From positions 1 to 24,170 of the forward strand of contig JAHQWL010000068.1 in NCBI GenBank assembly GCA_029856155.1: a DNA stretch of 24,170 bases, in the 5' to 3' direction. The position numbers and the translations under genes are program-made. Shown here in pieces: positions 222-24,170 of this stretch. Below the pieces are notes generated by a model. The model had not been told where the DNA came from and ran no database searches. It worked only from the letters and a program-made list of their open reading frames with translations. Source of the stretch: Promethearchaeia archaeon. Its GTDB lineage: Archaea; Asgardarchaeota; Lokiarchaeia; Sigyniarchaeales; SOKP01. Each line of letters begins with the position of its first letter. Position 1 is the stretch's first letter.

Positions 222-1412
222 ATGTTTGATATTAACAATATCAGAAATATTTGCGTGGTTGGAGCAGGGATAATGGGACATGGAATTGCTCAAGTTTCTC
301 TAATGGCCGGCTTTAATGTCACTTTAATTGATTTAAAAGAAGAACTCGTAGATAAAGGTTTGAAAAAAATTGAGGAAGGATTAGAAAAAATTAAAAATAA
401 GGGTAAGTTGGGAGAAATTCCCTCTATTGGTGATCTTTTAAGAAAGTGTACAAAATCAACCGATTTGGCTTCTGCTGTGAATGATGCTGATTTTGTGTTT
501 GAAGCAGTCGTTGAAAAAATAGAGATTAAAAAAAAAGTGTGTAACATAGTCATGCAAAATTCACCTTCTCACTGTATTTTTGCCTCAAATACCTCAACAT
601 TTAGAATAACTGAAATTGCTGAAGATTCAAAAAGACCAGAACAGGTCATTGGAATGCATTTTTTTCCACCAGTTCCTATTCAATGCTGTGTTGAGGTAAT
701 GAAAGGGGAAAAAACTTCGGATGACGTATTAGATATATGTGTAGCTCTTGGTGAGAAATTACCTTGTTTTAAAGGAAAAAGGCTTTCAGTAAGAATTGAA
801 AAGGAAAGTCCAGGATTTATAGCAAATAGATTACTAATTCCTTCACTTATATATTCAAACTGGATTTTTGACCAAGCATATGAAAAGAACATTCCATGGG
901 AACAGATTGATGCCGATGCAGGAGCAGGACAGTTAGTCTTAATGGGTCCATGTCAATTAAATGATTATCTTGGAATAGATGTTAGTTATAATAGTCTGAA
1001 GAGTTATGAAAAATATATTTCCCGTGATTTTGCTCCGGGTAAAGTGCTTACTAAACTCGTACTAGAAGGAAATTTTGGAAAAAAGACAGGAAAAGGCTTT
1101 TATGATTGGACAAAGGGGACACCAAAAGTAAATTTAAGTAAAAAAGCAGGCTTATTTAACCCTGAAATACATTTAGCAATCCAATTAAATGAAGGGTGTA
1201 AGCTTTTGGAAGAGAAAATCGTTTCTGGTTATAAAATTATTGATGATATTATGTTAAAAGGAACTAATATGCTTGGTCCATTTAGTGCCGGTAGACTTAA
1301 TTTCGAAAAGTGGTCTAAATTATTAGAAGATATTGCAGAAAAGTCGGGAAAGAATTATCTTAAACCCTGTAACCTTATGAAATCTGGTGATTTCGTTAAA
1401 ATGAGAAGGTAA
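222..1412 (+). CDS. 3-hydroxyacyl-CoA dehydrogenase (NAD-binding domain plus duplicated C-terminal domain)
   Basis: Rossmann VVGAGIMGHGIAQ, EAVVE, ASNTST, GMHFF with downstream VEV (catalytic His/Glu), PGFIANR, GKKTGKGFY; second C-terminal helical repeat (NEGCKLLEE...IDDIM...GPF). Confidence 0.93.
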   Translation: MFDINNIRNICVVGAGIMGHGIAQVSLMAGFNVTLIDLKEELVDKGLKKIEEGLEKIKNKGKLGEIPSIGDLLRKCTKSTDLASAVNDADFVFEAVVEKIEIKKKVCNIVMQNSPSHCIFASNTSTFRITEIAEDSKRPEQVIGMHFFPPVPIQCCVEVMKGEKTSDDVLDICVALGEKLPCFKGKRLSVRIEKESPGFIANRLLIPSLIYSNWIFDQAYEKNIPWEQIDADAGAGQLVLMGPCQLNDYLGIDVSYNSLKSYEKYISRDFAPGKVLTKLVLEGNFGKKTGKGFYDWTKGTPKVNLSKKAGLFNPEIHLAIQLNEGCKLLEEKIVSGYKIIDDIMLKGTNMLGPFSAGRLNFEKWSKLLEDIAEKSGKNYLKPCNLMKSGDFVKMRR

Positions 1413-1475: not shown

Positions 1476-2735
1476 TTATAATAATCCAGTATATCTCTGA
1501 ATTTGGGATTGAATTAAAAGAAGTTGGATGTTTCTTGATCCGCCAATTACTTCTTCAATTTTACTAATATCACATAATTCATCAACAGGGGTATTATCTG
1601 TGATCGATATGCCCCCCATATGTTGTTGAGCTTCATAACAGACTTCATGTGTAAGTTTAGCTAAATAATATTTACCTTGAGAAGAAATAGACGCCACCCA
1701 TTTTTCTGCCTCTTTAGAGGGCTTTTCTGCAAATAAGATTCTCTCATCGTATACAGTTGCGGCTTGTAGAGCGAGAGCAGTAGCAGCATTAGTCTTTGTT
1801 AATAAATCTGCTAATCCATATCCGACACCTTGATATCTGATCACAGGTTTGCCAAATTGTTTCCTTAAATTGGTATAAATAATACCATAAGCTAATCCCG
1901 CCCAGCAAATTCCTACGCCACTTCCCATTATTGAAAGTCTCTCAGGAACTAATCCTTCAAAAAGTCTTTTATATCCAAGTCCATCATCTGCAAGTACATA
2001 ATCTCGAGGTACTAAAACATTATCTAATATGGTATGTGCAATTTGGACTCGTGGTACTGAATTAATTTTTAATCGTTCGGTTCTTATTCCAAAATCACGG
2101 GCAATGATAGCTTGCACCATTGTGTCTCTTGGATTTGCTTCATCATAAACTCCATAACATGCAAAATAATCAGCAACCGCACCATTGGTGGTATAAACTT
2201 TCTCTCCGTTAAATATAACGCCCTCATCGGTTTTTGTACATTTAGTTGTCAGATTAACAGCATCAGAACCTCTCTCAGGTTCAGTAATACCTATACAGCC
2301 AATTTTTTGTCCAGATAAAAGCTCATCTTGCACTTTCAAAGGAATATCAGAAGCCCCTCCATGTTCATAATAATGAAAAGTAGGATTTCCGCATAATATT
2401 CCGGTTGCTAATCGTGCTAGTTCCAATTGAGGGTCTAACAACGAGAGATGAGCACCTAATAATATTTCTTTTTTCATTCCATAGGGTTTGAAGTCTTTCC
2501 ATGGATTTATTCGTTGTATATAACCATGCTTTCCAAGTTCTGGAAGTAACCCATAGACATCTTTTGATTTATCGATTTTTGGATGTAAATCTAAGCAAAA
2601 TTCTTGAAGTTTATTGCAATACTCTCGTTCTTCTTCATTTAGCATTGGAAAAACATTGTCATTAAAGATTTTGAAGACATTTTCCAATGACATCTTCTCG
2701 AGAATTTGATCATTAATAATTTTCTCTTGAAACAT
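1476..2735 (-). CDS. Acyl-CoA dehydrogenase
   Basis: GCIGITEPERGSDA, FNGEKVYTTNG, RKQFGKPV, QHMGGIS motifs; ERL glutamate in helix G and IGGS instead of YEGT (IVD/LCAD-like arrangement). Confidence 0.93.
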   Translation of the reverse strand: MFQEKIINDQILEKMSLENVFKIFNDNVFPMLNEEEREYCNKLQEFCLDLHPKIDKSKDVYGLLPELGKHGYIQRINPWKDFKPYGMKKEILLGAHLSLLDPQLELARLATGILCGNPTFHYYEHGGASDIPLKVQDELLSGQKIGCIGITEPERGSDAVNLTTKCTKTDEGVIFNGEKVYTTNGAVADYFACYGVYDEANPRDTMVQAIIARDFGIRTERLKINSVPRVQIAHTILDNVLVPRDYVLADDGLGYKRLFEGLVPERLSIMGSGVGICWAGLAYGIIYTNLRKQFGKPVIRYQGVGYGLADLLTKTNAATALALQAATVYDERILFAEKPSKEAEKWVASISSQGKYYLAKLTHEVCYEAQQHMGGISITDNTPVDELCDISKIEEVIGGSRNIQLLLIQSQIQRYTGLL

Positions 2736-4665: not shown

Positions 4666-5535
4666 TTATGAAATTTTTTTAATAGATTCTTTCAAAATTG
4701 CTAAAATTTTCTCTCGATACATAGGTTCAATAGCAATCATTCCATGAGTCTTTATAATACGGCTTTCGCTAGAGAGGATTTTTTCACAAAATTCTGGGGT
4801 AAGCCTATTTGGTAAATCTTGTTTGTTTGCAATTCCGATAACTAATTTATCTTGATAAAATTTATCTAATATATCATGGATTATTTCTTTTGAATTGTTA
4901 ATGTTTTCATATGTCGAATCTGTCACAAGTAATGTAATATCAGTTCCCTGTAAAAGACTTTTCCATAAAGATCTGAATTGAGCTTGCCCTGCAAAATCCC
5001 ATAGAGTTATTGATCTTTCAAATTCATCACCATCATAAGCAGCAATATCAGCTGTAATGGTAGGAACATATTCAAGGTCAACATTCTTTCCACAGATTAA
5101 TTTTGTTAATGTAGTCTTCCCAACGCCCCCAAATCCTATAATCGATACTTTAATAGCGCCTAAAATAATATTATCTAATTCATGTTCAAATTCAGTAAAA
5201 ATACTACGATTTCCTCCCCAACTGTCATTCTCAAGAATTTTCCCATACTTATCAATAAATTTTGTTCTTATACTCAATATCTTAGAATTCACAACCGAAT
5301 CATCGTCATCTAAATTTGTACATACTACAATGATGATTACGTCAATGATCGTATAATAATATTTGAAATCCTCCGTTTGTGTACTTTTAATATCACTTTG
5401 ACTGATTTCTTTCATAAAACCTGAAAAGGCACTTAAAAATCCCGCTAACAAATCTCTATCAACGTCAGAACTTCCATAATTCCTGAATAACAGTGATTTA
5501 CCGTCTCTTGTTAATATGTTTATATATTCAATCAT
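4666..5535 (-). CDS. Longin-like domain fused to an Arf-like small GTPase
   Basis: N-terminal ~125 aa has the Asgard longin pattern (INILTRDGKSLL...DLLAGFLSAFSGFMKEI...IIIVVC); C-terminal G1 GFGGVGKT, G2 YVPT, G3 WDFAGQ followed by FRSLW, G4 ANKQDLP. Confidence 0.85.
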   Translation of the reverse strand: MIEYINILTRDGKSLLFRNYGSSDVDRDLLAGFLSAFSGFMKEISQSDIKSTQTEDFKYYYTIIDVIIIVVCTNLDDDDSVVNSKILSIRTKFIDKYGKILENDSWGGNRSIFTEFEHELDNIILGAIKVSIIGFGGVGKTTLTKLICGKNVDLEYVPTITADIAAYDGDEFERSITLWDFAGQAQFRSLWKSLLQGTDITLLVTDSTYENINNSKEIIHDILDKFYQDKLVIGIANKQDLPNRLTPEFCEKILSSESRIIKTHGMIAIEPMYREKILAILKESIKKIS

Positions 5536-6703: not shown

Positions 6704-7282
6704 TTATTCCTCTAATTTTGAACGTAAGGTAAGTTTAGCCATCTTTTCAAAAATTAATTTAACATTTTTTCCTGTTAATGCCGAAGTCTCGAAAAATGGT
6801 TCATCAATTTTTTCACTTAGATGCTCTGCCATGGGCAATATGATCTTTCGCTCTTCATTCAAATCTATTTTATTGCCAATCAAAAGTCGTGGAATTCCCG
6901 AAAGACCATATTTAACTGCGGTTGAAAACCAATTATTTATATTTGAGAAAGAGCTTGAGCGTGTTAAATCATAAACTAACATCATTCCATCAGCGCCGTT
7001 GAAATATGGCCGATGTAACATATAGAATTGAGGTTGACCAGCTATATCCCAAACCATTAGATTAATTTTTGTATCCTTACCCATGTCGTCCTTTATTGTG
7101 ACTGGTTCTTTCGTGATGTTAACACCTACGGTTGGTATATATTCATAATTGAATTTATCACCACAGAAATTTGTCAAAAGACTTGTTTTACCGACGGCAG
7201 GGTCCCCAATCACGATTATTTTAAAAATCATCTCAGTTCGTCCATGAAACACTAACTTTCCTTTTTCATTTTCCTCTGTCAT
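6704..7282 (-). CDS. Rab-like small GTPase
   Basis: FKIIVIGDPAVGKTSL, YIPTVGV, WDIAGQ, YFNGADG, GNKIDL, FFETSALTGKNV; all G motifs intact; no C-terminal Cys. ATG at 7282 preferred over TTG at 7294. Confidence 0.92.
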   Translation of the reverse strand: MTEENEKGKLVFHGRTEMIFKIIVIGDPAVGKTSLLTNFCGDKFNYEYIPTVGVNITKEPVTIKDDMGKDTKINLMVWDIAGQPQFYMLHRPYFNGADGMMLVYDLTRSSSFSNINNWFSTAVKYGLSGIPRLLIGNKIDLNEERKIILPMAEHLSEKIDEPFFETSALTGKNVKLIFEKMAKLTLRSKLEE

Positions 7283-7360
7283 GATTTTTCTCAAATATTT
7301 TTTTGAAATTTTTCAGTTTTTAATTAATTAATTAATGAGTTTCGAATATAAAAATTTTAA

Positions 7361-7711: not shown

Positions 7712-8910
7712 TGGCTTGTCGGTAAATATCGGCGTTCCTTCACTAAGGACAACGGGTGCAACCACAAAATGCAGCTCGTAAAAAACAAAAGCAAAAATCA
7801 AAGAAATACTAAAATTCAAAGTCCAAATTTAGATCCTTAGCGAGCCACGGAACGCCCTAACGCCATAGTAAGAGGGCGCACTGTTGTGATACACAAAGAC
7901 ATTGCCGTAGCGGCGATCAGCAAAGAGGGCGCCGCCGAGTTTTCTAATATCAGAAGGTGTTTTCACCCAGCTCGACGTCTTCGTATCGAAATTTCCAAGT
8001 TTCTGCAACTCTCGATATTGTTCTTCCGTTAAAAGCTCAATGCCCATGGCAGCTGCCATATCAATAGCGTTATTTTCTGGTTTAAATGCTTTCCTTGCCT
8101 CCTGCCCTTCACGGTCGTAACAAACATTTCTGCGACCTTTAGGACTTTCCGCTGAACAATCATAAAAAATGTATTCGCCCGTCTTTTTATCATGACCAAC
8201 AACATCCGGTTCACCGCCAGTTCTTTCCATTTCATTGAGTGACCACAGTTTTTCAGTATTAGCTTCCAGCTTTGCTTGTACTTTAGCCCATTCAAGACCT
8301 TTATGGCGGTTCATGTTTTTCTCAAAACGGGCTTTCAACGCTCTGAGTAGTTCTTCACGTTGTTCTGGTGACAACTCTTTTTTGAGCTTGCGCATAATCA
8401 TAGTATTCATCCCGAGTTTATAAAATCATCTATGCAGGGTGACGTTTACTTTACAGCTCATATTCATTTAAAAGACTCCTTTTGATTTTTTTTTTTAAAT
8501 TCGAAGTTAATTTTAAAAACTTATGTAATTTTGTAACTTTAATACTTTCATTATCATTTTCAACAAGAAAGAAATTATGAGAATATTTCTGATCTTTAAT
8601 GTCGGTCTTAATTCATTTTTGAATAAGATATAGAGCTTATTTTATTATTAATCAAGCGACACTGAATCAATAAACGAAACAAAGTTATAAATTTGTCTGA
8701 TTTGAATTGGAAAAAGTTTCAAAAGGCTAAATATCATTTCTTTTGGAGGAATTTTATCATTTGAGAAGTATATAGATGGATGACTCAATTCGTTTCAAAA
8801 TAATCATTGATTTTTTTTATAACAATCGCTATAGAAGGGGCAAGGAATCCTAGAATGAAAGCAAAGGGGATCATTGCAGCTTTGCTCATTTTATCAGTGT
8901 CTGAATCACC
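7712..8910. mobile_element. ~1.2 kb insertion interrupting the 2H phosphoesterase gene (no transposase)
   Basis: Deleting 7712-8910 restores ...EVCKLI-KAFEVTL...; junctions show only a short inverted TTGG/CCAA; the left part is GC-rich relative to the host. Confidence 0.65.
7829..8410 (-). CDS. DUF4256 family protein (bacterial-like, probably horizontally acquired)
   Basis: Recognised sequence LKARFEKNMNRH...MERTGGEPDVVG...DCSAESPKGRR...FDTKTSSW...FVYHN...FRGSL; two hand-counted 60-nt lines are 53% and 43% GC. Several possible ATGs. Confidence 0.88.
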   Translation of the reverse strand: MNTMIMRKLKKELSPEQREELLRALKARFEKNMNRHKGLEWAKVQAKLEANTEKLWSLNEMERTGGEPDVVGHDKKTGEYIFYDCSAESPKGRRNVCYDREGQEARKAFKPENNAIDMAAAMGIELLTEEQYRELQKLGNFDTKTSSWVKTPSDIRKLGGALFADRRYGNVFVYHNSAPSYYGVRAFRGSLRI

Positions 8911-9105
8911 AATCAATTTGCATACCTCTGAAAATTTTTTTTCAAGTGTATTATAATCCGTTTCAGGTCTGAATGGATAGAGTAAAGTTATGTGAGGCAT
9001 CCATCTATAAATATTTCGATCATATACTTTACGAATTTCTTGAATTGGTTCCCAACTTTCTTGTGGAGGGATAATTACAACCGCAGAAGTATACACTTTT
9101 TTCAT
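8911..9105 (-). pseudogene. 2H phosphoesterase (2'-5' RNA ligase-like), N-terminal half; reads through into the insert to a stop at 8785
   Basis: TSAVVIIPP...IQEIRKVYDRNIYRWMPHITLLYPF carries the first HxT motif; similarity ends at EVCKLI. Confidence 0.8.
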
Positions 9106-9185
9106 CGTTCTTAAACAAAATATAAATTTAGTCTCATCTCATAAAATACTAAATTTTAATTTTCTTAAATTTTATTTTTTAACTA

Positions 9186-9692
9186 ATGAAGATAAAACAA
9201 CGACATTTTATACGAAAATCTGAATTGAAGCCATTGAAAGACGAAATATTAAGACAATACGATGAAAAGTTCGTTAATCAAATATTTCCTAGAAAAAGTA
9301 ATGTTGAGCTTATTCAAACGGAAGCAGGAGATGAATTATACGCAATAAACAATGTGTTAAAACTATTTAAATCAAAAGAGGGGTATATTCCAGTTTTAAC
9401 CTTATTATTAGACAATCAAATAGAGTTGAAGACTATAGTTGTTGATTTTGGTGCTATTCGATATGTTGCAAATGGTGCTGATGTAATGCGTCCTGGTATT
9501 ACCAAAATAGATCCTTCAATTAAGAAAGGAGATATCGTAGCAATTATAGAAGAGACCAAAAGTAGAGCGTTAGCTGTTGGAAGAGCAATATTTGATGCTC
9601 CTGAAATGGAAGCAAAAAGTTCTGGAAAAGTTGTGCAGAATATTCACACAATCCAAGATTCTATTTGGGAATTCGAAAAACAGTTTAAATAA
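9186..9692 (+). CDS. DUF1947/PUA domain RNA-binding protein (MCT-1/Tma20-like)
   Basis: IKQRHFIRKSE N-terminus; VVDFGAIRYVANGADVMRPGI and ALAVG...GKVVQNIHTIQDSIW PUA motifs. Confidence 0.9.
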   Translation: MKIKQRHFIRKSELKPLKDEILRQYDEKFVNQIFPRKSNVELIQTEAGDELYAINNVLKLFKSKEGYIPVLTLLLDNQIELKTIVVDFGAIRYVANGADVMRPGITKIDPSIKKGDIVAIIEETKSRALAVGRAIFDAPEMEAKSSGKVVQNIHTIQDSIWEFEKQFK

Positions 9693-9984
9693 ATTCTGCC
9701 TGTAATATCGAATTAAATATAGTTTTTTCTGATTCTATTAATTGATTAATTGGGAAACTTTCTTGCTCATAAGAATCTAATAGATCTCCACACTCTTTAA
9801 ACCTGCACAAATTAATTATAATTTTTAGACCTTCTTCTACAATTTCTTTATCAACAAATTCATCTGAAGTGTGCATTAATTTAATTATTGAGTGAGCTTT
9901 CCATAATTCATTCTCATAAATTTGATTATCTATACCCAAAAATTCTTCAAAAATTTCCGTGAAAAACTCAACTTCAGCAATCAT
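9685..9984 (-). CDS. Hypothetical acidic protein (99 aa)
   Basis: ATG at 9984 with GAGGTGG upstream (9997-10003); host-like composition; 8-bp convergent overlap with the PUA gene. Confidence 0.6.
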   Translation of the reverse strand: MIAEVEFFTEIFEEFLGIDNQIYENELWKAHSIIKLMHTSDEFVDKEIVEEGLKIIINLCRFKECGDLLDSYEQESFPINQLIESEKTIFNSILQAEFI

Positions 9985-10353
9985 TTTTAGCTTATACCAC
10001 CTCAACCCTTACGTGCTGAAAAATACATATTTCTCCCCTACTGCGGCAATAATATATTTATCTATTAATATATTTTAATCCAATCATTTCCATTATGTTC
10101 CGTTATGATAATACTAACATTATAGAATCGGTCTAAAACAGACGAAATCAATCATTTTATCATAGAATTTTTTTGAAATTGTTAATTTTATCAATTTTTT
10201 TTTCACTTTTTTATGATTCATCTATCTTCTTTGAATATTAGTAATCATACTTATCCGAAATTATAAGATTGATCTAATAAACATACAATTAAAACTCAAA
10301 TAATATCTACATATCTATATATAGTTTAAATTAAGTCGTGAGTTAAAGATCTT

Positions 10354-11145
10354 ATGAGTAATCAAGAATTAATTCTTTATGAAGTTAAAGGGCGTATTGC
10401 TACAATTACAATAAATAGACCAGACAAGGCGAATGCGTGCAATATTCCTATGTTAAAATTGATATATGAAAGTTTAATTAATGCTGACATAGATGAGAAA
10501 GTAAAATGTATTTTGATCAAGAGCACAGGGCAGCAATTCTTTTCAGCTGGTTACGACCTTAAGGAAATCCAAGGGTCTCCAGAAAACGTAGCACAAATCA
10601 CTGAATGGGGGAGGAAGGTCAATGAGACAATAGTTCTTATGAAAAAACCAGTAATCACACAAATTCAAGGAATAGCTATAGGTTTTGGGGTAATGGTGAT
10701 TATGGCTTCTGATTTGAGGGTTTTTGCGGATAGACCTATTAATGAATTATATTTGAGATTGCCAGAACTTGCAATCTCAGCTTTTCCTCAGACTGGAGCA
10801 ACTCTTTTGCCCCTTTTAGGACTCGGATTGACCTATGCAAAGAATCTCCTTTTTACTACGGATAAATTTGGTGTTAAGGAATTAAATAACATCAATTTTC
10901 CAACACGGATTTTTCCACTCGAACAACTTGATATTGAAACCCTTAATTTCGCAAAACAGATAGTTAAATATCAGACAGAATTTATCTTCTTTACAAAAAG
11001 CATGTTAAGGATTATGAATAAAGCATACATTAAATCATGCTTTGATTTGGAAGATGAATGTGGAAAAGCCGCTTATGATACAAACAAAAAAAATATGAAG
11101 GAATTCGACGATTTTATTAAGGGCTTACATGAAAAATACCCTTAA
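10354..11145 (+). CDS. Enoyl-CoA hydratase/isomerase (crotonase superfamily)
   Basis: IATITINRPDKANA, FSAGYDL, KPVITQIQGIAIGFG, LPE...P.TGAT motifs. Confidence 0.9.
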   Translation: MSNQELILYEVKGRIATITINRPDKANACNIPMLKLIYESLINADIDEKVKCILIKSTGQQFFSAGYDLKEIQGSPENVAQITEWGRKVNETIVLMKKPVITQIQGIAIGFGVMVIMASDLRVFADRPINELYLRLPELAISAFPQTGATLLPLLGLGLTYAKNLLFTTDKFGVKELNNINFPTRIFPLEQLDIETLNFAKQIVKYQTEFIFFTKSMLRIMNKAYIKSCFDLEDECGKAAYDTNKKNMKEFDDFIKGLHEKYP

Positions 11146-17821: not shown

Positions 17822-17893
17822 TATGTACTTATTCAGTACATAAATTTATAAATGAAAATTTCTTTTTTAATTATATGTACCGATCATGTACCG
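17822..17893 (+). promoter_or_regulatory. Putative promoter/operator: four ATGTAC boxes flanking a TATA-like element
   Basis: Inverted TATGTAC-N7-GTACATA (17822-17842), TTTATAAA (17845-17852), direct ATGTACCG repeats at 17875 and 17886 (11-bp spacing); GAGGTGA at 17907-17913. Confidence 0.6.
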
Positions 17894-17920
17894 TTAATTA
17901 AGAAAAGAGGTGAAAAGAAA

Positions 17921-18691
17921 ATGAGTAAAGAGAAATATAAAGACATATTTAAGATTATAGTTCTTGGAGCGGCTGGAGTGGGTAAAACCACATTAATTGA
18001 ACAATTTTCAGATGAATTTCTTCACAAAGATGCTGCTCCAAAAGTAGGTGTGAATTTTTTTATTAAAAATATAACTATTGATGGCCATAATTATAAACTA
18101 CAGTTTTGGGATATTATTGACGATGAAAAATTCGGATCGCTTCAAACACTATACTATACTGGAGCCTCAGCTGTTTTTTTTATATTTGATTTATCTAGAC
18201 CAGAAACTTTTGATTATTATCAGACGCGCTTTAAGAAAGTTTGGAATCAGATCAGAGATGACAAATGCCCTGTGCTTATAATTGGAAATAAACTTGATTT
18301 AGTAGAGAATCAGAAATCAATTGATAGGGAAAAATTTCGGAAATTTGTTAATAAAGAAGGTTTAATGGGTTATATTGAATTAACTTCAACTAATAATATT
18401 GAAGAACTAGTAAAACAACTTCCCAATATTATTCAAAAAGCTTTAAAAAAGAGTTATCAAGTCAAATTTTTAGTTAATAACAAAGAACTAGAAGATATTA
18501 AAAGATTTGCTAAACTTTCTCATCAGACACAATCAGAATTTATTCGCACAGCAATATGGGAAAAAATAAAATTGATTAACACACCTTCTATGATCGAGAA
18601 TTCAATAAAAAATAAAAAGATAGTAGAAGACAAATTGCGTTTAGACGAATTGAAAAAAATTCGAGAATTATTAAAAAGGTCAGAAGAGTAA
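17921..18691 (+). CDS. Degenerate Rab-like GTPase fused to a C-terminal ribbon-helix-helix (CopG-like) domain
   Basis: G1 GAAGVGKT and G4 GNKLDL intact; G2 (PKVGV), G3 (WDIIDDE) and G5 (ELTS) altered; RHH pattern YQVKFLV-NNKELEDIKRFAKLS-HQTQSEFIRTAIWEKI at 18452-18571. Start set at ATG 17921, 7 nt after GAGGTGA. Confidence 0.8.
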   Translation: MSKEKYKDIFKIIVLGAAGVGKTTLIEQFSDEFLHKDAAPKVGVNFFIKNITIDGHNYKLQFWDIIDDEKFGSLQTLYYTGASAVFFIFDLSRPETFDYYQTRFKKVWNQIRDDKCPVLIIGNKLDLVENQKSIDREKFRKFVNKEGLMGYIELTSTNNIEELVKQLPNIIQKALKKSYQVKFLVNNKELEDIKRFAKLSHQTQSEFIRTAIWEKIKLINTPSMIENSIKNKKIVEDKLRLDELKKIRELLKRSEE

Positions 18692-19421: not shown

Positions 19422-20165
19422 ATGACTAGAGAAACTCAATTAATACAACGATTACAAGATGGTTCTCTTCGAGCAATAATATTCGACTTTGACGGGACTT
19501 TATTAGATATTCGTCAAACCCTTGAAAAATCAATCGAAGAGGTATTGGAAAAAGAAGTCCAACAAGCAGATTTTGATATGGATAACACTATTCAAGAGAT
19601 TGGAGCTTTACTAGAAACTATTCAAGGGTACCCATTACCTAAGATCTTACTTGAGTCTTATAATATCTTCAAATATATAACAGCACTTAAGAATTTAACT
19701 TATTTTAAAAAATTACGTATTGCAATAAAAATATTTTCAAAATATCTAGAATATTCAAAAGAAGCGGTTTTTTTTCCATCTGTAAAACCACTTTTGAAGA
19801 AACTGAAGAAAAAATATGATCTCTTTATTCTCTCACATAACAAAACTGAAACAATCATTGAACATCTTGAGAAAGAGAATTTAAGTGAATTTTTTAAGGG
19901 TATTTATGGAAGTGATAAAATACCCGTTCAAAAACCAGATCCATTGGCACTTCAACCCCCCTTAGAAAACTATGAAAAACGTAATAGAGAAGAGTTTTTA
20001 ATGATTGGTGATATGCCATCAGATATAATCGCTGGACGTGAAGCGGGAATGTGGACTTTAGGAGTAGCAAGTGGTGTATCAAAAAAAGGAATATTAAAAG
20101 AAAATCAACCAGATTTATTGATTAATTCGCTAAATGAATTATTACAATTAATAGAAAAAAATTAA
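19422..20165 (+). CDS. HAD-superfamily phosphatase (subfamily IA, phosphoglycolate phosphatase-like)
   Basis: Motif I FDFDGTL, motif II ILSHN, motif III KPDP, motif IV IGDMPSDIIAG. Confidence 0.9.
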   Translation: MTRETQLIQRLQDGSLRAIIFDFDGTLLDIRQTLEKSIEEVLEKEVQQADFDMDNTIQEIGALLETIQGYPLPKILLESYNIFKYITALKNLTYFKKLRIAIKIFSKYLEYSKEAVFFPSVKPLLKKLKKKYDLFILSHNKTETIIEHLEKENLSEFFKGIYGSDKIPVQKPDPLALQPPLENYEKRNREEFLMIGDMPSDIIAGREAGMWTLGVASGVSKKGILKENQPDLLINSLNELLQLIEKN

Positions 20166-20623: not shown

Positions 20624-22297
20624 GTGATTAGTATGGAACTCGAAAAACTAGAAAAAAAAGGCTACGAAATAGCAGCAGAAATGGAACGAAAGAAATCCAC
20701 TGAAGAGAGATTGCAAGAAGAATTAAAATATGAAAAGCGACACCAAGATTGGACTTATAAATTGATGAAATACAATCCTATTGATCCATTAAATGATTTA
20801 TATCGATATGTTATCAAAAGAATGGATTTAAAGCCAATAGAGGGACGCTTACAATGGTGGGCTGCTTATATATATATTAAATGGGCTGCTAGAACGTTCT
20901 GGAACTTCAAAGCTGAATACCCAAAAGGGAACATCTTTCCAGAATGGGGTCCCGGTATTCTGGTAGGCAATCATGAATCCCATATCGATCCTTTCTTTTA
21001 TGGAGCCGCTTGTCATAGAAGAATTCGCTATATGAGTAAATTAGATAATTTTAAGACCCCTATAGTTAAAACTCTCTTCAATAACCTAGGAGCGTTTAAA
21101 GTTGATCGTGAAAATCCTGAACGAGGATGGCAGAAAGCAAAAGAAGTTATCCAAGGTGGAGAATGGGTAGGTATATTTCCGGAAGGGACGCGTTCCAAGG
21201 ATGGAAATCTAGGAGAATTTAAAACTGGAGCTGTAAGGCTTGCTATTGAGATGCAAGTACCAATTGTACCAATGGCTGTTGTTGGCTCGAGAAATGCTCT
21301 ACCTAAAGGCAACCTTGTTATGAAGCCAACGCAAGTAAAAGTTCGTGTTGGTGATCCGATTTATTATACTAATTATGATATCAATAATGTATCTTATGAA
21401 GACATAAGAAGATTAACTGATGAATTAAGGAATACCATTTTTGAATTACGAGAGGGTGTATATGGAAAGGAAAAAGAAGAACTCTCGATTGGCTCACCAG
21501 AAGAAGTTGAGAAGGAATCCAAATTTAATTTCATGAGTTATTTGAAAGATCAAGGAAAAGGTATTATTAGGCTCATTGATGATTCTTGGTACGCTTTTTT
21601 AAGAAGTTTAGAGGCGTTTGGAGTAAGGACGCAATTTCAACACATAGTACAATGTTTTTCAGGAGATTTAGTGTGTAATTGGTCAGATCTCATGATGCCG
21701 TATAAAGCAATTGATTTTGATAAATATATTCCCGCAGAAGGAGCTGCACTTATTTGTCCTAGTCATAATTCTGAATGGGATGTACTTATACTGGCAGCAG
21801 CTATAATACATCATGAACCCCGACGTGTAGCGTATCAGATGGCAAAACAATCGCTATTTAAAATTCCAGTTGTTAATGCTTGGGTCAGAAATCATCATGC
21901 GTTCCCTTTAAAACGAGGAGCACATGATGTAGAGGCTTATATTTATGCAAAAGAACTTCTTAGAAGTGGTGAAGTTGTAATCACATACCCCGAAGGAACT
22001 ACGAATCTTGGACATGGTCAACTTTTAGAAGCCCATACTGGTCCTATGCGATTAGCTATTGAAACACAAGTACCTATTATCCCTATAGGTATAACTGGAA
22101 CAGAAGCCACCTATCCTAAGCATGCGAAAATGTTGAAGTTTTATAAAGGCCAAATTCTCAAATGTGGTCCCCCATTCATGGATCATCAAAAGTATTGGGA
22201 TAAGCCAATGCCAGATTACGATGAACTTAAGAGATTAACAGAAAAGATGATGGATCAGATAAGAGATTTACTTCTTTACGATACACCTGATGCATGA
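20624..22297 (+). CDS. Tandem two-domain PlsC-family (lysophospholipid) acyltransferase
   Basis: Domain 1: NHESHID, FKVDR, FPEGTRS, VPIVP. Domain 2: SHNSEWD, FPLKRG, YPEGTTN, VPIIP. Both keep HxxxxD. Start GTG 20624 or ATG 20633. Confidence 0.9.
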   Translation: MISMELEKLEKKGYEIAAEMERKKSTEERLQEELKYEKRHQDWTYKLMKYNPIDPLNDLYRYVIKRMDLKPIEGRLQWWAAYIYIKWAARTFWNFKAEYPKGNIFPEWGPGILVGNHESHIDPFFYGAACHRRIRYMSKLDNFKTPIVKTLFNNLGAFKVDRENPERGWQKAKEVIQGGEWVGIFPEGTRSKDGNLGEFKTGAVRLAIEMQVPIVPMAVVGSRNALPKGNLVMKPTQVKVRVGDPIYYTNYDINNVSYEDIRRLTDELRNTIFELREGVYGKEKEELSIGSPEEVEKESKFNFMSYLKDQGKGIIRLIDDSWYAFLRSLEAFGVRTQFQHIVQCFSGDLVCNWSDLMMPYKAIDFDKYIPAEGAALICPSHNSEWDVLILAAAIIHHEPRRVAYQMAKQSLFKIPVVNAWVRNHHAFPLKRGAHDVEAYIYAKELLRSGEVVITYPEGTTNLGHGQLLEAHTGPMRLAIETQVPIIPIGITGTEATYPKHAKMLKFYKGQILKCGPPFMDHQKYWDKPMPDYDELKRLTEKMMDQIRDLLLYDTPDA

Positions 22298-22317
22298 GTT
22301 ATTGAGGAACTATATAA

Positions 22318-23376
22318 ATGGAAACAAGAGAGCACCTGAGCAAAAAAAAATTTAAAGTTGGAATTCCGAGAGCTCTTCATTTTTATAGGTATTTTCCATT
22401 TTGGAAAAAATTACTTGAAGAATTAGACGTCGAAATCATTTTAAGTCCACCAACTAATAAAAAAATAGTTGAGGAAGGGGTAACGCACGGATTTGGAGAG
22501 CTTTGTATTCCTGTAAAGATATACTATGGTCATGTGTTGAAATTGGTTCGAGAACATCCTGATTTGGACTATATCTTTGTTCCAAGGTATGTAGCAGAAG
22601 TAAAAGATGCTTATTTCTGCCCTAAATTCTTATCGCTCCCAGATATTATCAAAATTTTACCAGAAGTGCCAAAAATATTAAATTTTGAAGTGAATGTGAA
22701 GGAGTTTCCAATAGCGACATCCGCAATCGAGCTTGGAAATCAATTAGGGAGAACTCAAAATCAATCTTTAAATGCATATAGAGGGGCTCAAAAGTATTTT
22801 GATGAATATCATCAATTTTTACGAGATGGAGCTCCAGTCAATCATGCATTACGGTTAGTGGAAAGAGATCGTCCATTTACCTTACCTAAAAGAAAGCACA
22901 AGGGTGACATTAAATTCTTGCTTTTAGGGCATGCTTATAATATTTTCGATACTTTTATTAATTTAGATTTCCAGAAAAAACTACAGGATCAAGGGGTTGA
23001 AGTATTTACAATCGAAAATTTACCAGAATCATTATTCAAAGAACCAGTGATTATAAATAAACGTCTTAGAAATTATTGGAGACATGAAGAGGAAATAATG
23101 CAATCAATTAGATATTTTCTCACTAAGGGTCGTAGCGAGATTGATGGAGTTATTTTCCTTATAAGTTTTGCTTGTGGTCCAGATAGCCTCATCTCTGAAT
23201 TAGTCATGCGAGATATGAGGGTTGTGGGGTTACCTTATCTTGAAATAATAATGGATGAACATAGTGGAGAAGCAGGTCTTTTAACAAGAGTGGAAAGCTT
23301 TGTTGAGATGGTGCGCCGTAAAAAGAAGAAATTAATGCTCGAGTCTAATAAGGCGAAATCTGTTAAATCGTTATAA
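22318..23376 (+). CDS. DUF2229 / 2-hydroxyacyl-CoA dehydratase (HGD-D)-like Fe-S protein (acyl-CoA dehydratase activase-related)
   Basis: KVGIPRAL..Y..FPFW, ELCIPVKIYYGHV, FCPKF, GHAYN, SFACGPDS, DEHSGEAGLLTRVESF; three conserved Cys; 20 bp after the acyltransferase stop, with GAGGA in the gap. Confidence 0.87.
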   Translation: METREHLSKKKFKVGIPRALHFYRYFPFWKKLLEELDVEIILSPPTNKKIVEEGVTHGFGELCIPVKIYYGHVLKLVREHPDLDYIFVPRYVAEVKDAYFCPKFLSLPDIIKILPEVPKILNFEVNVKEFPIATSAIELGNQLGRTQNQSLNAYRGAQKYFDEYHQFLRDGAPVNHALRLVERDRPFTLPKRKHKGDIKFLLLGHAYNIFDTFINLDFQKKLQDQGVEVFTIENLPESLFKEPVIINKRLRNYWRHEEEIMQSIRYFLTKGRSEIDGVIFLISFACGPDSLISELVMRDMRVVGLPYLEIIMDEHSGEAGLLTRVESFVEMVRRKKKKLMLESNKAKSVKSL

Positions 23377-23774
23377 ACTATTAAAAAAAGTCTGAAGCAA
23401 TTTATTAAACTTCTTTTCTTGAGGTATTTTTTCGTTGCTAATACCTGCTGTCATATACTAAAATAATGGGTAGTACAAGAGTACTTTAGAAATAAAGATT
23501 GAATAAAAAATTTTTTGACCATTATAAGCTCAAATACTCTCATTTTTACTACTATAAGGGGGGAGTTAGGGGGGTATCTTTAATTCCATTTAATCTTCTA
23601 GATCATGCTATAAATAGGATATATTTAACCTCTGTAAGGGACAGTCCTAAGACTAAATTACTTGATATGTTAGGCTTGGATAGGAGTCAGGAAGGTCGTC
23701 TTGACAGCAATTTGAGAATTTGGTATCGAGTTAGTCCGTTAAGTTCAAAAACAACTAGTTCTGTTAAAAGTTTA

Positions 23775-23792
23775 TGAATGAACGTTCGTTCA
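23775..23792. promoter_or_regulatory. 18-bp near-perfect palindrome, candidate operator
   Basis: TGAATGAAC-GTTCGTTCA, one mismatched pair; resembles operators of dimeric HTH (TetR-type) regulators. Confidence 0.45.
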
Positions 23793-23951
23793 ATTTCCTC
23801 AAATACTTTTTAACATACTAAAGAAGAGTACACTCGTTTTTATTGAAGCTAAATAATTTTATTAATAAATAATCTTTTACTAAATAAATTGAGTTTATTA
23901 AAAGTTCTACTGAGCTTAAAGAAATAATATATGTATTCAATCAGTATCTAA

Positions 23952-24095
23952 ATAAACATTTTTGTAAGATTTATAGTTGAAGAACATACAGGTGAGGCTG
24001 GACTTTTAACTCGAATAGAATCCTTCACTGAAATGATTAAGCACAAGAAGAGAATGCAAGCTGGAAAAAAGAAAGCGAAAAGAGGCGTGCAATAA
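23952..24095 (+). pseudogene. Start-less diverged paralogous copy of the DUF2229/HGD-D protein C-terminus
   Basis: INIFVRFIVEEHTGEAGLLTRIESFTEMIKHKKRMQAGKKKAKRGVQ* aligns with IIMDEHSGEAGLLTRVESFVEMVRRKKK of 22318..23376; in-frame TAA at 23949. Confidence 0.8.
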
Positions 24096-24113
24096 TCGTT
24101 TCGTGCAATAATC
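24086..24113 (+). repeat. 12-bp direct repeat CGTGCAATAATC x2
   Basis: Copies at 24086-24097 and 24102-24113 separated by GTTT; the first spans the remnant's stop codon. Confidence 0.7.
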
Positions 24114-24130
24114 CCAACCCTGTGTTTGAC

Positions 24131-24170
24131 ATGAGCGAAGAAAAACTAGCAATACATAAAAGAAAAGTAG
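24131..24170 (+). CDS. Partial CDS running off the window (MSEEKLAIHKRKV...), possibly the next subunit of the DUF2229 system
   Basis: ATG at 24131 with 13 open codons to the window edge; the position matches the usual DUF2229 -> HGD-D -> activase order, but it is too short to identify. Confidence 0.4.
   Translation, partial: MSEEKLAIHKRKV

Follow-up and report, generated by a model that had tools for sequence, protein, structure and literature searches.

Eukaryotes carry bacterial-type lipids although the lineage of their host was archaeal, and this remains an open problem. A locus in an Asgard archaeon raises a narrower question within it, namely, whether genes for a bacterial-type route from acyl esters to ether lipids form one functional unit in Lokiarchaeia. 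The window analyzed here is the complete contig C68 (JAHQWL010000068.1; 24,170 bp) of a Promethearchaeia archaeon genome (G000; 4.1 Mb, 30% GC, 97% complete, 5.7% contaminated). Close to its right end, a gene for a 557-aa tandem acyltransferase (hereafter, PlsC2; 20624-22297, plus strand) is followed by a gene for a 352-aa DUF2229 protein (DH352; 22318-23376, plus strand). A prior reading of the letters and translations alone (hereafter, the sequence-only reading) had described this pair as PlsA/Ger-like and had assigned it to a candidate pathway that forms fatty-acyl esters and reduces them to ethers, or else to the remodelling of scavenged lipids. The features named in that reading are confirmed at the positions given there. 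We find that the pair belongs to the first half of a lipid operon that is conserved in Lokiarchaeia. On comparative analysis, the best reading of this operon is that it reduces an acyl-glycerolipid made by PlsC from ester to ether, with a rough probability of 0.55.

Linkage of the acyltransferase and DUF2229 genes

Linkage was counted over 80 related loci from different Promethearchaeota metagenome-assembled genomes (MAGs), with PlsC2 scored as linked when it lies no more than 700 nt upstream of DH352. PlsC2 is directly upstream of DH352 in 75 of the 80 loci, and the protein divergence between loci reaches 31% for DH352 and 52% for PlsC2; the adjacency is far beyond chance. In a sister family of the same taxonomic order, the two PlsC domains are encoded by separate genes 5′ of Red1-Red2-activase, and a third layout is PlsC-Red1-activase-Red2. 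Thus, the acyltransferase synteny that the sequence-only reading had proposed as a check extends over three gene layouts, in which the linkage persists at 45-49% identity and even where DH352 has become separated from its partners by one or two inserted gene sets. Only three PF01553 domains were found in G000, two in PlsC2 and one on contig C56, and all of them belong to these clusters; three further Asgard families have PF01553 on its own. DH352 orthologues (at least 68% identity) are present in 45 of the 54 sampled genomes of the window's family, and the other members of the order and class have homologues with 45-49% identity to DH352. Among about 190 genomes of other families, there were only two matches at E ≤ 1e-60; one is a homologue with 35% identity, and the other is an orthologue that was likely binned wrongly.

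The spacer between PlsC2 and DH352 (22298-22317, plus strand) is exactly 20 nt long, as had been noticed from the sequence, and carries GAGGA 10 nt 5′ of the DH352 ATG. Because of this short spacer and its motif, the two genes are probably co-translated, and the same spacing was found again in relatives (median 24 nt between alignment ends). The junction is bridged by one 677-nt contig that stems from an RNA library of a relative, although it may be DNA carry-over. In the metatranscriptomes of three studies, contigs with 88-100% identity cover PlsC2 and DH352 (word shares 0.07-0.09). The libraries may hold DNA, and stretches without coverage carry no meaning; these contigs are a weak sign of expression and were not counted as proof.

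PlsC2, which has a GTG start at 20624 (alternative ATG at 20633), matches PF01553 in two stretches (190 bits, threshold 23) and TIGR00530 with 164.6 bits summed over the two domains (cut-off 102.95). Domain 1 contains the H117-x4-D122 dyad and FPEGT at 185, domain 2 contains the H381-x4-D386 dyad and YPEGT at 455, and across 70 orthologues the conservation of each dyad and each block III motif is 95% or more. The closest solved chain is PlsC of T. maritima (PDB 5KYM; E = 7e-16), which has the HX4D and (F/Y)PEGT blocks in common with PlsC2. Unlike this PlsC, however, PlsC2 combines in one chain two complete domains (encoded by separate genes in the sister family), has no hydrophobic anchor, and shows YPEGTT instead of FPEGTR in the second domain. 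No transmembrane segment was detected in PlsC2 (highest Kyte-Doolittle 19-residue mean, 1.47). PlsC2 is classified here, from its domains and motifs, as a predicted glycerolipid acyltransferase that would transfer acyl groups to a glycerol-phosphate or lyso-lipid acceptor.

The HAD phosphatase noticed upstream on the same strand is a 247-aa HAD_2 protein (19422-20165, plus strand; Pfam HAD_2, 94.6 bits) with the DxDxT motif in the form DFDGT at residues 22-26. Compared with the NCBIfam equivalogs, its every score is under the respective cut-off. HAD is a conserved neighbor 5′ of PlsC2 in the window's family and is present in most of the 80 loci, but in the window it is possibly a separate transcript because a gap of 458 nt separates it from PlsC2.

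Elsewhere in the window, genes for a 3-hydroxyacyl-CoA dehydrogenase (222-1412, plus strand), an acyl-CoA dehydrogenase (1476-2735, minus strand) and an enoyl-CoA hydratase (10354-11145, plus strand) represent a possible source or sink of acyl-CoA. The segment 13604-17728 (plus strand) encodes an AMP-binding acyl-CoA synthetase and, 75 nt on, a 786-aa pyruvate-formate-lyase-like glycyl radical enzyme; a gene for its activating enzyme was not seen in the window.

DH352 is a free-standing Red1 subunit

Residues 13-234 of DH352 match DUF2229 (PF09989) over profile positions 1-217 of 218, with 155.7 bits (cut-off 29.4). An HGD-D-like tail at residues 273-331 scores 26.2 bits, under the PF06050 cut-off of 28.4, and covers only profile positions 282-341 of 342, so that DH352 falls outside the HGD-D family; it likewise falls outside the double-cubane cluster reductase equivalog NF040772 (15 bits vs. 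350). Conservation of residues was assessed in 98 module-1 (Red1) sequences of all architectures. The three conserved cysteines reported from the sequence, C63, C101 and C286, are invariant in all 98, and 39 columns, including these three, are at least 85% conserved. H72, Y207, W254, D313-E-H315, T323-R324 and E326 are likewise invariant, and DH352 has them in common with all activase-fused forms; besides the cysteines, it retains about 30 residues of the Red1 module of PlsA/Ger-type proteins.

Mapping of modules in about 130 longer DUF2229 homologues showed two arrangements. The homologues of approximately 1400 aa consist of two activase domains followed by module 1 and module 2, and those of approximately 1000 aa consist of two activase domains and module 1, followed by a separate module-2 gene of approximately 440 aa. 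Because the mapped layout matches both Act1-Act2-Red1 plus Red2, as described for PlsA/PlsR (PMC12838417), and BBDHDDH, as described for Ger (PMC13159169), DH352 is, by sequence comparison, a free-standing Red1 subunit.

No DUF2229 structure was found in the Protein Data Bank (PDB), and NCBIfam contains no model for PlsA or Ger. The alignment-based AlphaFold (AF2) model of DH352 has a pLDDT of 94.6, and the top 20 Foldseek matches of this model in PDB are all catalytic-subunit chains of (R)-2-hydroxyisocaproyl-CoA dehydratase (HadB/C), the double-cubane cluster protein (DCCP) or class I benzoyl-CoA reductases (BzdNO/MbdON), with E from 1.7e-10 to 6.8e-7. The best structural matches, HadBC with its activator HadI, BzdNO/MbdON, and DCCP with DCCP-R (E from 1e-10 to 1e-7, TM about 0.5), resemble the DH352 set in its predicted organization: in HadBC, benzoyl-CoA reductase and DCCP, the two subunits of a heterodimer meet at an interface that contains Cys-ligated clusters, and an HgdC-type activase injects electrons at the expense of ATP. 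However, DH352 is only 13-16% identical to HadBC, BzdNO/MbdON and DCCP, whose substrates are CoA thioesters or small molecules and which, unlike DH352, show no linkage to acyltransferases. From the model, DH352 is a predicted [4Fe-4S] catalytic subunit of a radical enzyme with the BCR/HAD fold.

Partner genes

The activase is missing from the window, as had been observed, and the window is the whole of contig C68. In less rearranged relatives (L048, L081, L084, L085, L099), the partners anticipated by the sequence-only reading are directly downstream of DH352, in a simple operon that consists of HAD, PlsC2, DH352, a 396-aa Red2 (DH396), a 340-aa activase (act340), a small open reading frame (ORF), and a 233-aa PlsC-fold protein. 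The second half of this operon in G000 is located on contig C56 (7841-10985), with DH396 and act340 at 7841-10067. The activase is of the one-domain HgdC type (TIGR00241, 198.9 bits, cut-off 125.4), Red2 has three invariant cysteines of its own (C51, C81 and C309), and the operon-closing PlsC-fold protein (PlsC-like233) has a block I without His in G000 as well as in the orthologues.

The small ORF encodes a 64-aa protein in G000 (C56, about 10075-10266; L021), with counterparts of 84 aa in the sister family (L104, 7848-8102) and 61 aa in an Omnitrophota bacterium (L105, 6681-6866). These helical proteins of 61-84 aa have a common F.DL....IP stretch and are invariably encoded 3′ of the activase; they yielded no family match.

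DH352 and the Red2 encoded on C56 were predicted to form a complex with an ipSAE of 0.81, compared to 0.00 for three controls, with at least 88% contact agreement between runs and a partner pLDDT of at least 87. The ipSAE mark was calibrated on solved complexes, 58 of 80 of which reach it, and on mismatched pairs, of which 2 of 110 do so. The regions around all six invariant cysteines lie inside the predicted interface. A DH352-DH396 heterodimer is thus predicted from modeling, but this prediction shows likeness to HadBC as much as it shows binding because HadBC-type heterodimers are among the solved structures.

Relationship to PlsA/PlsR and Ger

The Red1 tree is a quick maximum likelihood tree rooted on Red2, with SH-aLRT values as the only support measure. 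It was built without the characterized sequences of C. perfringens, T. maritima and D. alkenivorans, whose placement in the fused clade is inferred from their architecture. One clade of stand-alone forms (support 97) comprises the DH352 clade (support 100), the PlsC-linked archaeal forms, a flavin-fused paralogue and an Omnitrophota protein. The second clade (support 99) includes every activase-fused form and, on a long branch, an Asgard protein of 865 aa (BD865), in which a partial and a full activase domain are fused to Red1.

Compared to PlsA/PlsR (CPE1194/CPE1195 of Clostridium perfringens; single-gene forms in Enterococcus, Lactococcus and Bifidobacterium), the DH352 system has the same module set of activase, three-Cys Red1 and Red2, the BCR/HAD-type fold and the invariant Red1 residues, and PlsA/PlsR is likewise split over two genes. 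Whereas PlsA has two activase domains fused to Red1, the DH352 system employs a lone Red1, a separate one-domain activase, and an added 64-aa protein. Ger (Tmari_0479 of Thermotoga maritima; SHJ90043 of Desulfatibacillum alkenivorans) is similar in combining DUF2229 with short HGD-D pieces and in its need for activation by BcrAD_BadFG, but is a single chain of roughly 1400 aa, as opposed to the separate proteins here. The BBD arrangement published for Ger as conserved in all alkyl-ether producers is absent from DH352, and the comparison does not distinguish an alkyl from an alkenyl product. Thus, the description of DH352 as PlsA/Ger-like stands as far as the Red1 residues and the module set are concerned, and is weakened with regard to architecture and descent, given that DH352 is a stand-alone protein without fused activase domains and falls in a separate clade of the tree.

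In 11 of the 80 loci, BD865 and a 462-aa partner are encoded directly after DH352 (L019/L035, 13073-17070; L096, 11717-15732; L123, 9005-12975, minus strand), so that a protein of the clade with Ger architecture is a neighbor of DH352 in relatives; no BD865 orthologue was found in G000. Ger homologues have been reported in Lokiarchaeota by DIAMOND at a query coverage of at least 30% (PMC13159169), and these are more likely to be BD865-type proteins. Among the bacterial loci, two of the PlsA/Ger type were inspected, and neither has a PlsC neighbor.

The proposed pathway and its alternatives

In the proposed pathway, PlsC2 would use acyl-CoA to make a glycerol-bound fatty-acyl ester, with glycerol phosphate or a lyso-lipid being acylated at one position or at both. 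The activase dimer, with ATP, would push a low-potential electron into the [4Fe-4S] clusters of Red1/Red2, which would then reduce the carbonyl of that ester, yielding an alk-1-enyl (PlsA-like) or an alkyl (Ger-like) ether. The HAD enzyme may remove the phosphate, and the task of holding the lipid or docking the complex may fall to the PlsC-like protein that lacks His and to the 64-aa protein. In addition to the linkage, the module architecture, the shared Red1 residues, the fold, the predicted heterodimer, the activase and the distribution over the family, further observations were counted in favor of this scheme: the bracketing of the reductase genes by two PlsC-fold genes in the simple operon, for the link to lipids; the acyl-CoA synthetase and beta-oxidation-type genes in the window, for the supply of acyl-CoA; and the presence of the BD865 pair, of the PlsA/Ger-type clade, beside DH352 in relatives. 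Of the acyl-ester-to-ether lipid pathway envisaged in the sequence-only reading, the enzyme class, the partners and the tie to acyltransferases are borne out, whereas the chemistry is a proposal. Of the four refuting conditions named in that reading, the three that concern partner genes, linkage and clustering were examined, and none spoke against the pathway.

Several observations weigh against this scheme. By its position in the tree, DH352 appears to stand beside the group with PlsA/Ger architecture as a sister family instead of belonging to it, and it has no BcrAD_BadFG domain, so that the fused activase that marks this group (BBD or Act1-Act2-Red1) is lacking. Two of the nearest relatives of DH352 beyond the Lokiarchaeial clade (one in an Omnitrophota MAG, the other on a contig with bacterial-type neighbors) are arranged as Red1-Red2-Act plus a small ORF, and an acyltransferase neighbor is absent at both loci. 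PlsY was not found in G000, and no transmembrane segment was found in any of the operon proteins. In the family, there are two genomes of 100% completeness that retain HAD-PlsC2-PlsC-like233 but have lost all the reductase genes (Red1, Red2 and activase) at this locus (L126, G083:C6, 11160-15424; L127, G174:C14, 11459-15647), because of which it appears that the acyltransferases can work without the reductase. The chemistry ascribed to members of the DH352 clade is reached by analogy. Finally, the lipids reported to date from cultured Lokiarchaeia are, to our knowledge, all isoprenoid.

The main rival explanation, which we consider unlikely, is that Red1, Red2 and the activase form a radical enzyme, either a dehydratase or a reductase, whose substrate is a soluble acyl-CoA or hydroxyacyl-CoA, as it is in the structural relatives, such that PlsC2 merely uses or competes for acyl-CoA and no ether bond is made. 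The closest solved folds, which are CoA-ester enzymes, fit this explanation, as do the position of DH352 outside the PlsA/Ger-type clade, the 3-hydroxyacyl-CoA dehydrogenase, acyl-CoA dehydrogenase, enoyl-CoA hydratase and acyl-CoA synthetase encoded in the window, an acyl-CoA dehydrogenase fragment and a 3HCDH gene found between operon genes in some relatives, and the lack of PlsC neighbors in the closest bacterial relatives checked. However, the beta-oxidation genes are not conserved neighbors, in contrast to the two PlsC-fold genes that bracket the reductase in the simple operon; the HGD-D score of DH352 is under the Pfam cut-off and comes from the last 60 residues only; and, as far as known, the characterized DUF2229 enzymes act on glycerolipid esters only (PMC13159169, PMC9702350). 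The clustering with soluble 2-hydroxyacyl-CoA dehydratases that the sequence-only reading had named as evidence against itself was not seen: DH352 has the DUF2229 module and all the invariant residues common to PlsA/Ger-type proteins.

A second alternative retains the ester-to-ether chemistry and changes its purpose, so that the operon would remodel scavenged bacterial phospholipids or acylate an archaeal intermediate, such as GGGP or lyso-lipids of the archaeol type, and the products would be minor mixed isoprenoid/alkyl, storage or signaling lipids, not the bulk membrane. G000 has a normal GGGP synthase, so that ordinary archaeal lipid synthesis is expected as well, and the failure to find PlsY, the dispensability of the reductase genes in two relatives, and the chimeric lipids proposed for Lokiarchaeota (PMC6737245) all agree with such a role. 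The data do not distinguish acceptors, however, and the two intact active sites of PlsC2 are at least as compatible with two acylations of one backbone; we regard this alternative as quite improbable. That the adjacency has no functional meaning, i.e. that unrelated genes have been kept together by descent in one family, could be argued from the confinement of orthologues with at least 68% identity to one family plus two outliers, because of which many of the 80 loci are not independent, but is made very improbable by the recurrence of the linkage in three layouts at 45-49% identity, its survival of the insertion of one or two gene sets, and the involvement of every PF01553 domain of G000.

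With regard to ester-to-ether reduction by the operon, the degree of novelty assumed in the sequence-only reading was too high. Apart from the published Ger homologues (PMC13159169), PlsC genes in Lokiarchaeota have been published (PMC6737245), and PlsC in Lokiarchaeota is attributed to Villanueva 2017 in the citing text of PMC12993045. No published description of the operon, the stand-alone clade, or the cassette described below was found in the literature. The isolated PlsC and Ger homologues of the published lists now become one conserved operon with a minimal set of five to seven genes, a size that lends itself to anaerobic expression in E. coli with standard ether-lipid assays as the readout. 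The stand-alone Red1/Red2/activase clade of DUF2229 is hereby defined; its function is unassigned in bacteria too, so that a result would annotate many hundreds of bacterial proteins.

A 4.8-kb cassette at the contig end

Downstream of DH352, an AT-rich spacer (23377-23951) contains no convincing gene, its 92-aa ORF (23499-23777) being without a Pfam or NCBIfam match. It is followed by a 48-codon relic (23952-24095, plus strand), which represents the 3′ end of another DH352-type allele (IESFTEMIK and QAGKKKAK are among its residues; 43% to the DH352 C-terminus in tblastn). The relic is 94% identical at the nucleotide level to positions 3236-3435 of L090, where the same sequence type is the C-terminus of a working DH352.

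Positions 23971-24170 (plus strand) form the left edge of a cassette of 4.8 kb, with a 94-100% nucleotide match and the same junction in about 35 loci. The ORF noticed at 24131 is the start of an 803-aa FAD_binding_4-DUF2229 (Red1) gene, of which the contig end leaves 13 codons (40 nt) and which is complete in relatives. The cassette encodes this FAD_binding_4-Red1 protein, a 343-aa activase and a 444-aa Red2, and has no integrase inside; elsewhere, it is located at 11778-16562 in L016, 11708-16604 in L062, 2359-7156 in L068 and 3275-8186 in L090. A selenocysteine in the flavin-fused paralogue was considered and rejected, the flagged TGA being the terminal stop overlapped by the next gene.

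Between loci, the cassettes are 94.1-98.5% identical at the nucleotide level, compared to 73.5-77.9% for the adjoining DH352 genes. Because the cassette is far more alike between genomes than the flanking DH352, this pattern points to recent horizontal spread between species rather than vertical descent, and suggests that Asgard species have exchanged lipid-modifying genes recently. In 39 of the 80 loci, the contig ends within 2 kb of DH352; such breaks, that of C68 included, would arise because assemblers break at sequence common to co-occurring species.

In G000, the right end of the cassette is on contig C86 (93844-93233, minus strand), with the C-terminal half of the 444-aa gene at 98% identity. 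Directly after it comes a 5′-truncated copy of DH352 (92455-93135, minus strand; residues 119-345, 93% identical) and then a gene for a 549-aa MULE-like transposase (L020, 8710-10359, minus strand). No other G000 contig starting inside the 803-aa gene was found, and the middle of the cassette is absent from the assembly; C68 and C86 are probably neighbors joined through the cassette. In other loci, the cassette comes after a 5′ fragment of the Red2 gene, and the cassette flanks are stranded gene ends, 3′ of DH352 and 5′ of Red2. The operon is split in G000, where DH352 is followed by the paralogous cassette and an element resembling an insertion sequence (IS), and the second half is on C56. 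The L123 contig carries HAD, PlsC2, DH352, BD865, the 462-aa partner, the cassette and Red2 in series.

Taken to its full extent, the proposal would be that one Lokiarchaeia family makes non-isoprenoid alkyl or alk-1-enyl ether glycerolipids derived from fatty acyl groups, by a self-contained operon of a double acyltransferase, a split three-protein ester reductase and helpers, and that its species trade a second reductase, fused to a flavin domain, on a cassette of 4.8 kb that comes to lie beside the first. We put this forward tentatively and consider it doubtful as a whole; if true, the archaeal lineage nearest to eukaryotes would possess plasmalogen-like chemistry, and this chemistry would be under active selection there.

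Other features of the window

Scans of the whole window found no Rfam families and no tRNA genes, and the sites returned by a sigma-70 promoter and terminator scan, a model that is not applicable to archaea, were no more numerous than in shuffled sequence. Three genes for small GTPases of the Ras/Arf/Roc type are located at 4666-5535 (minus strand), 6704-7294 (minus strand) and 17852-18691 (plus strand). The third of these proteins has a C-terminal piece resembling a ribbon-helix-helix, with weak DUF6290/NikA-like matches at residues 199-239.

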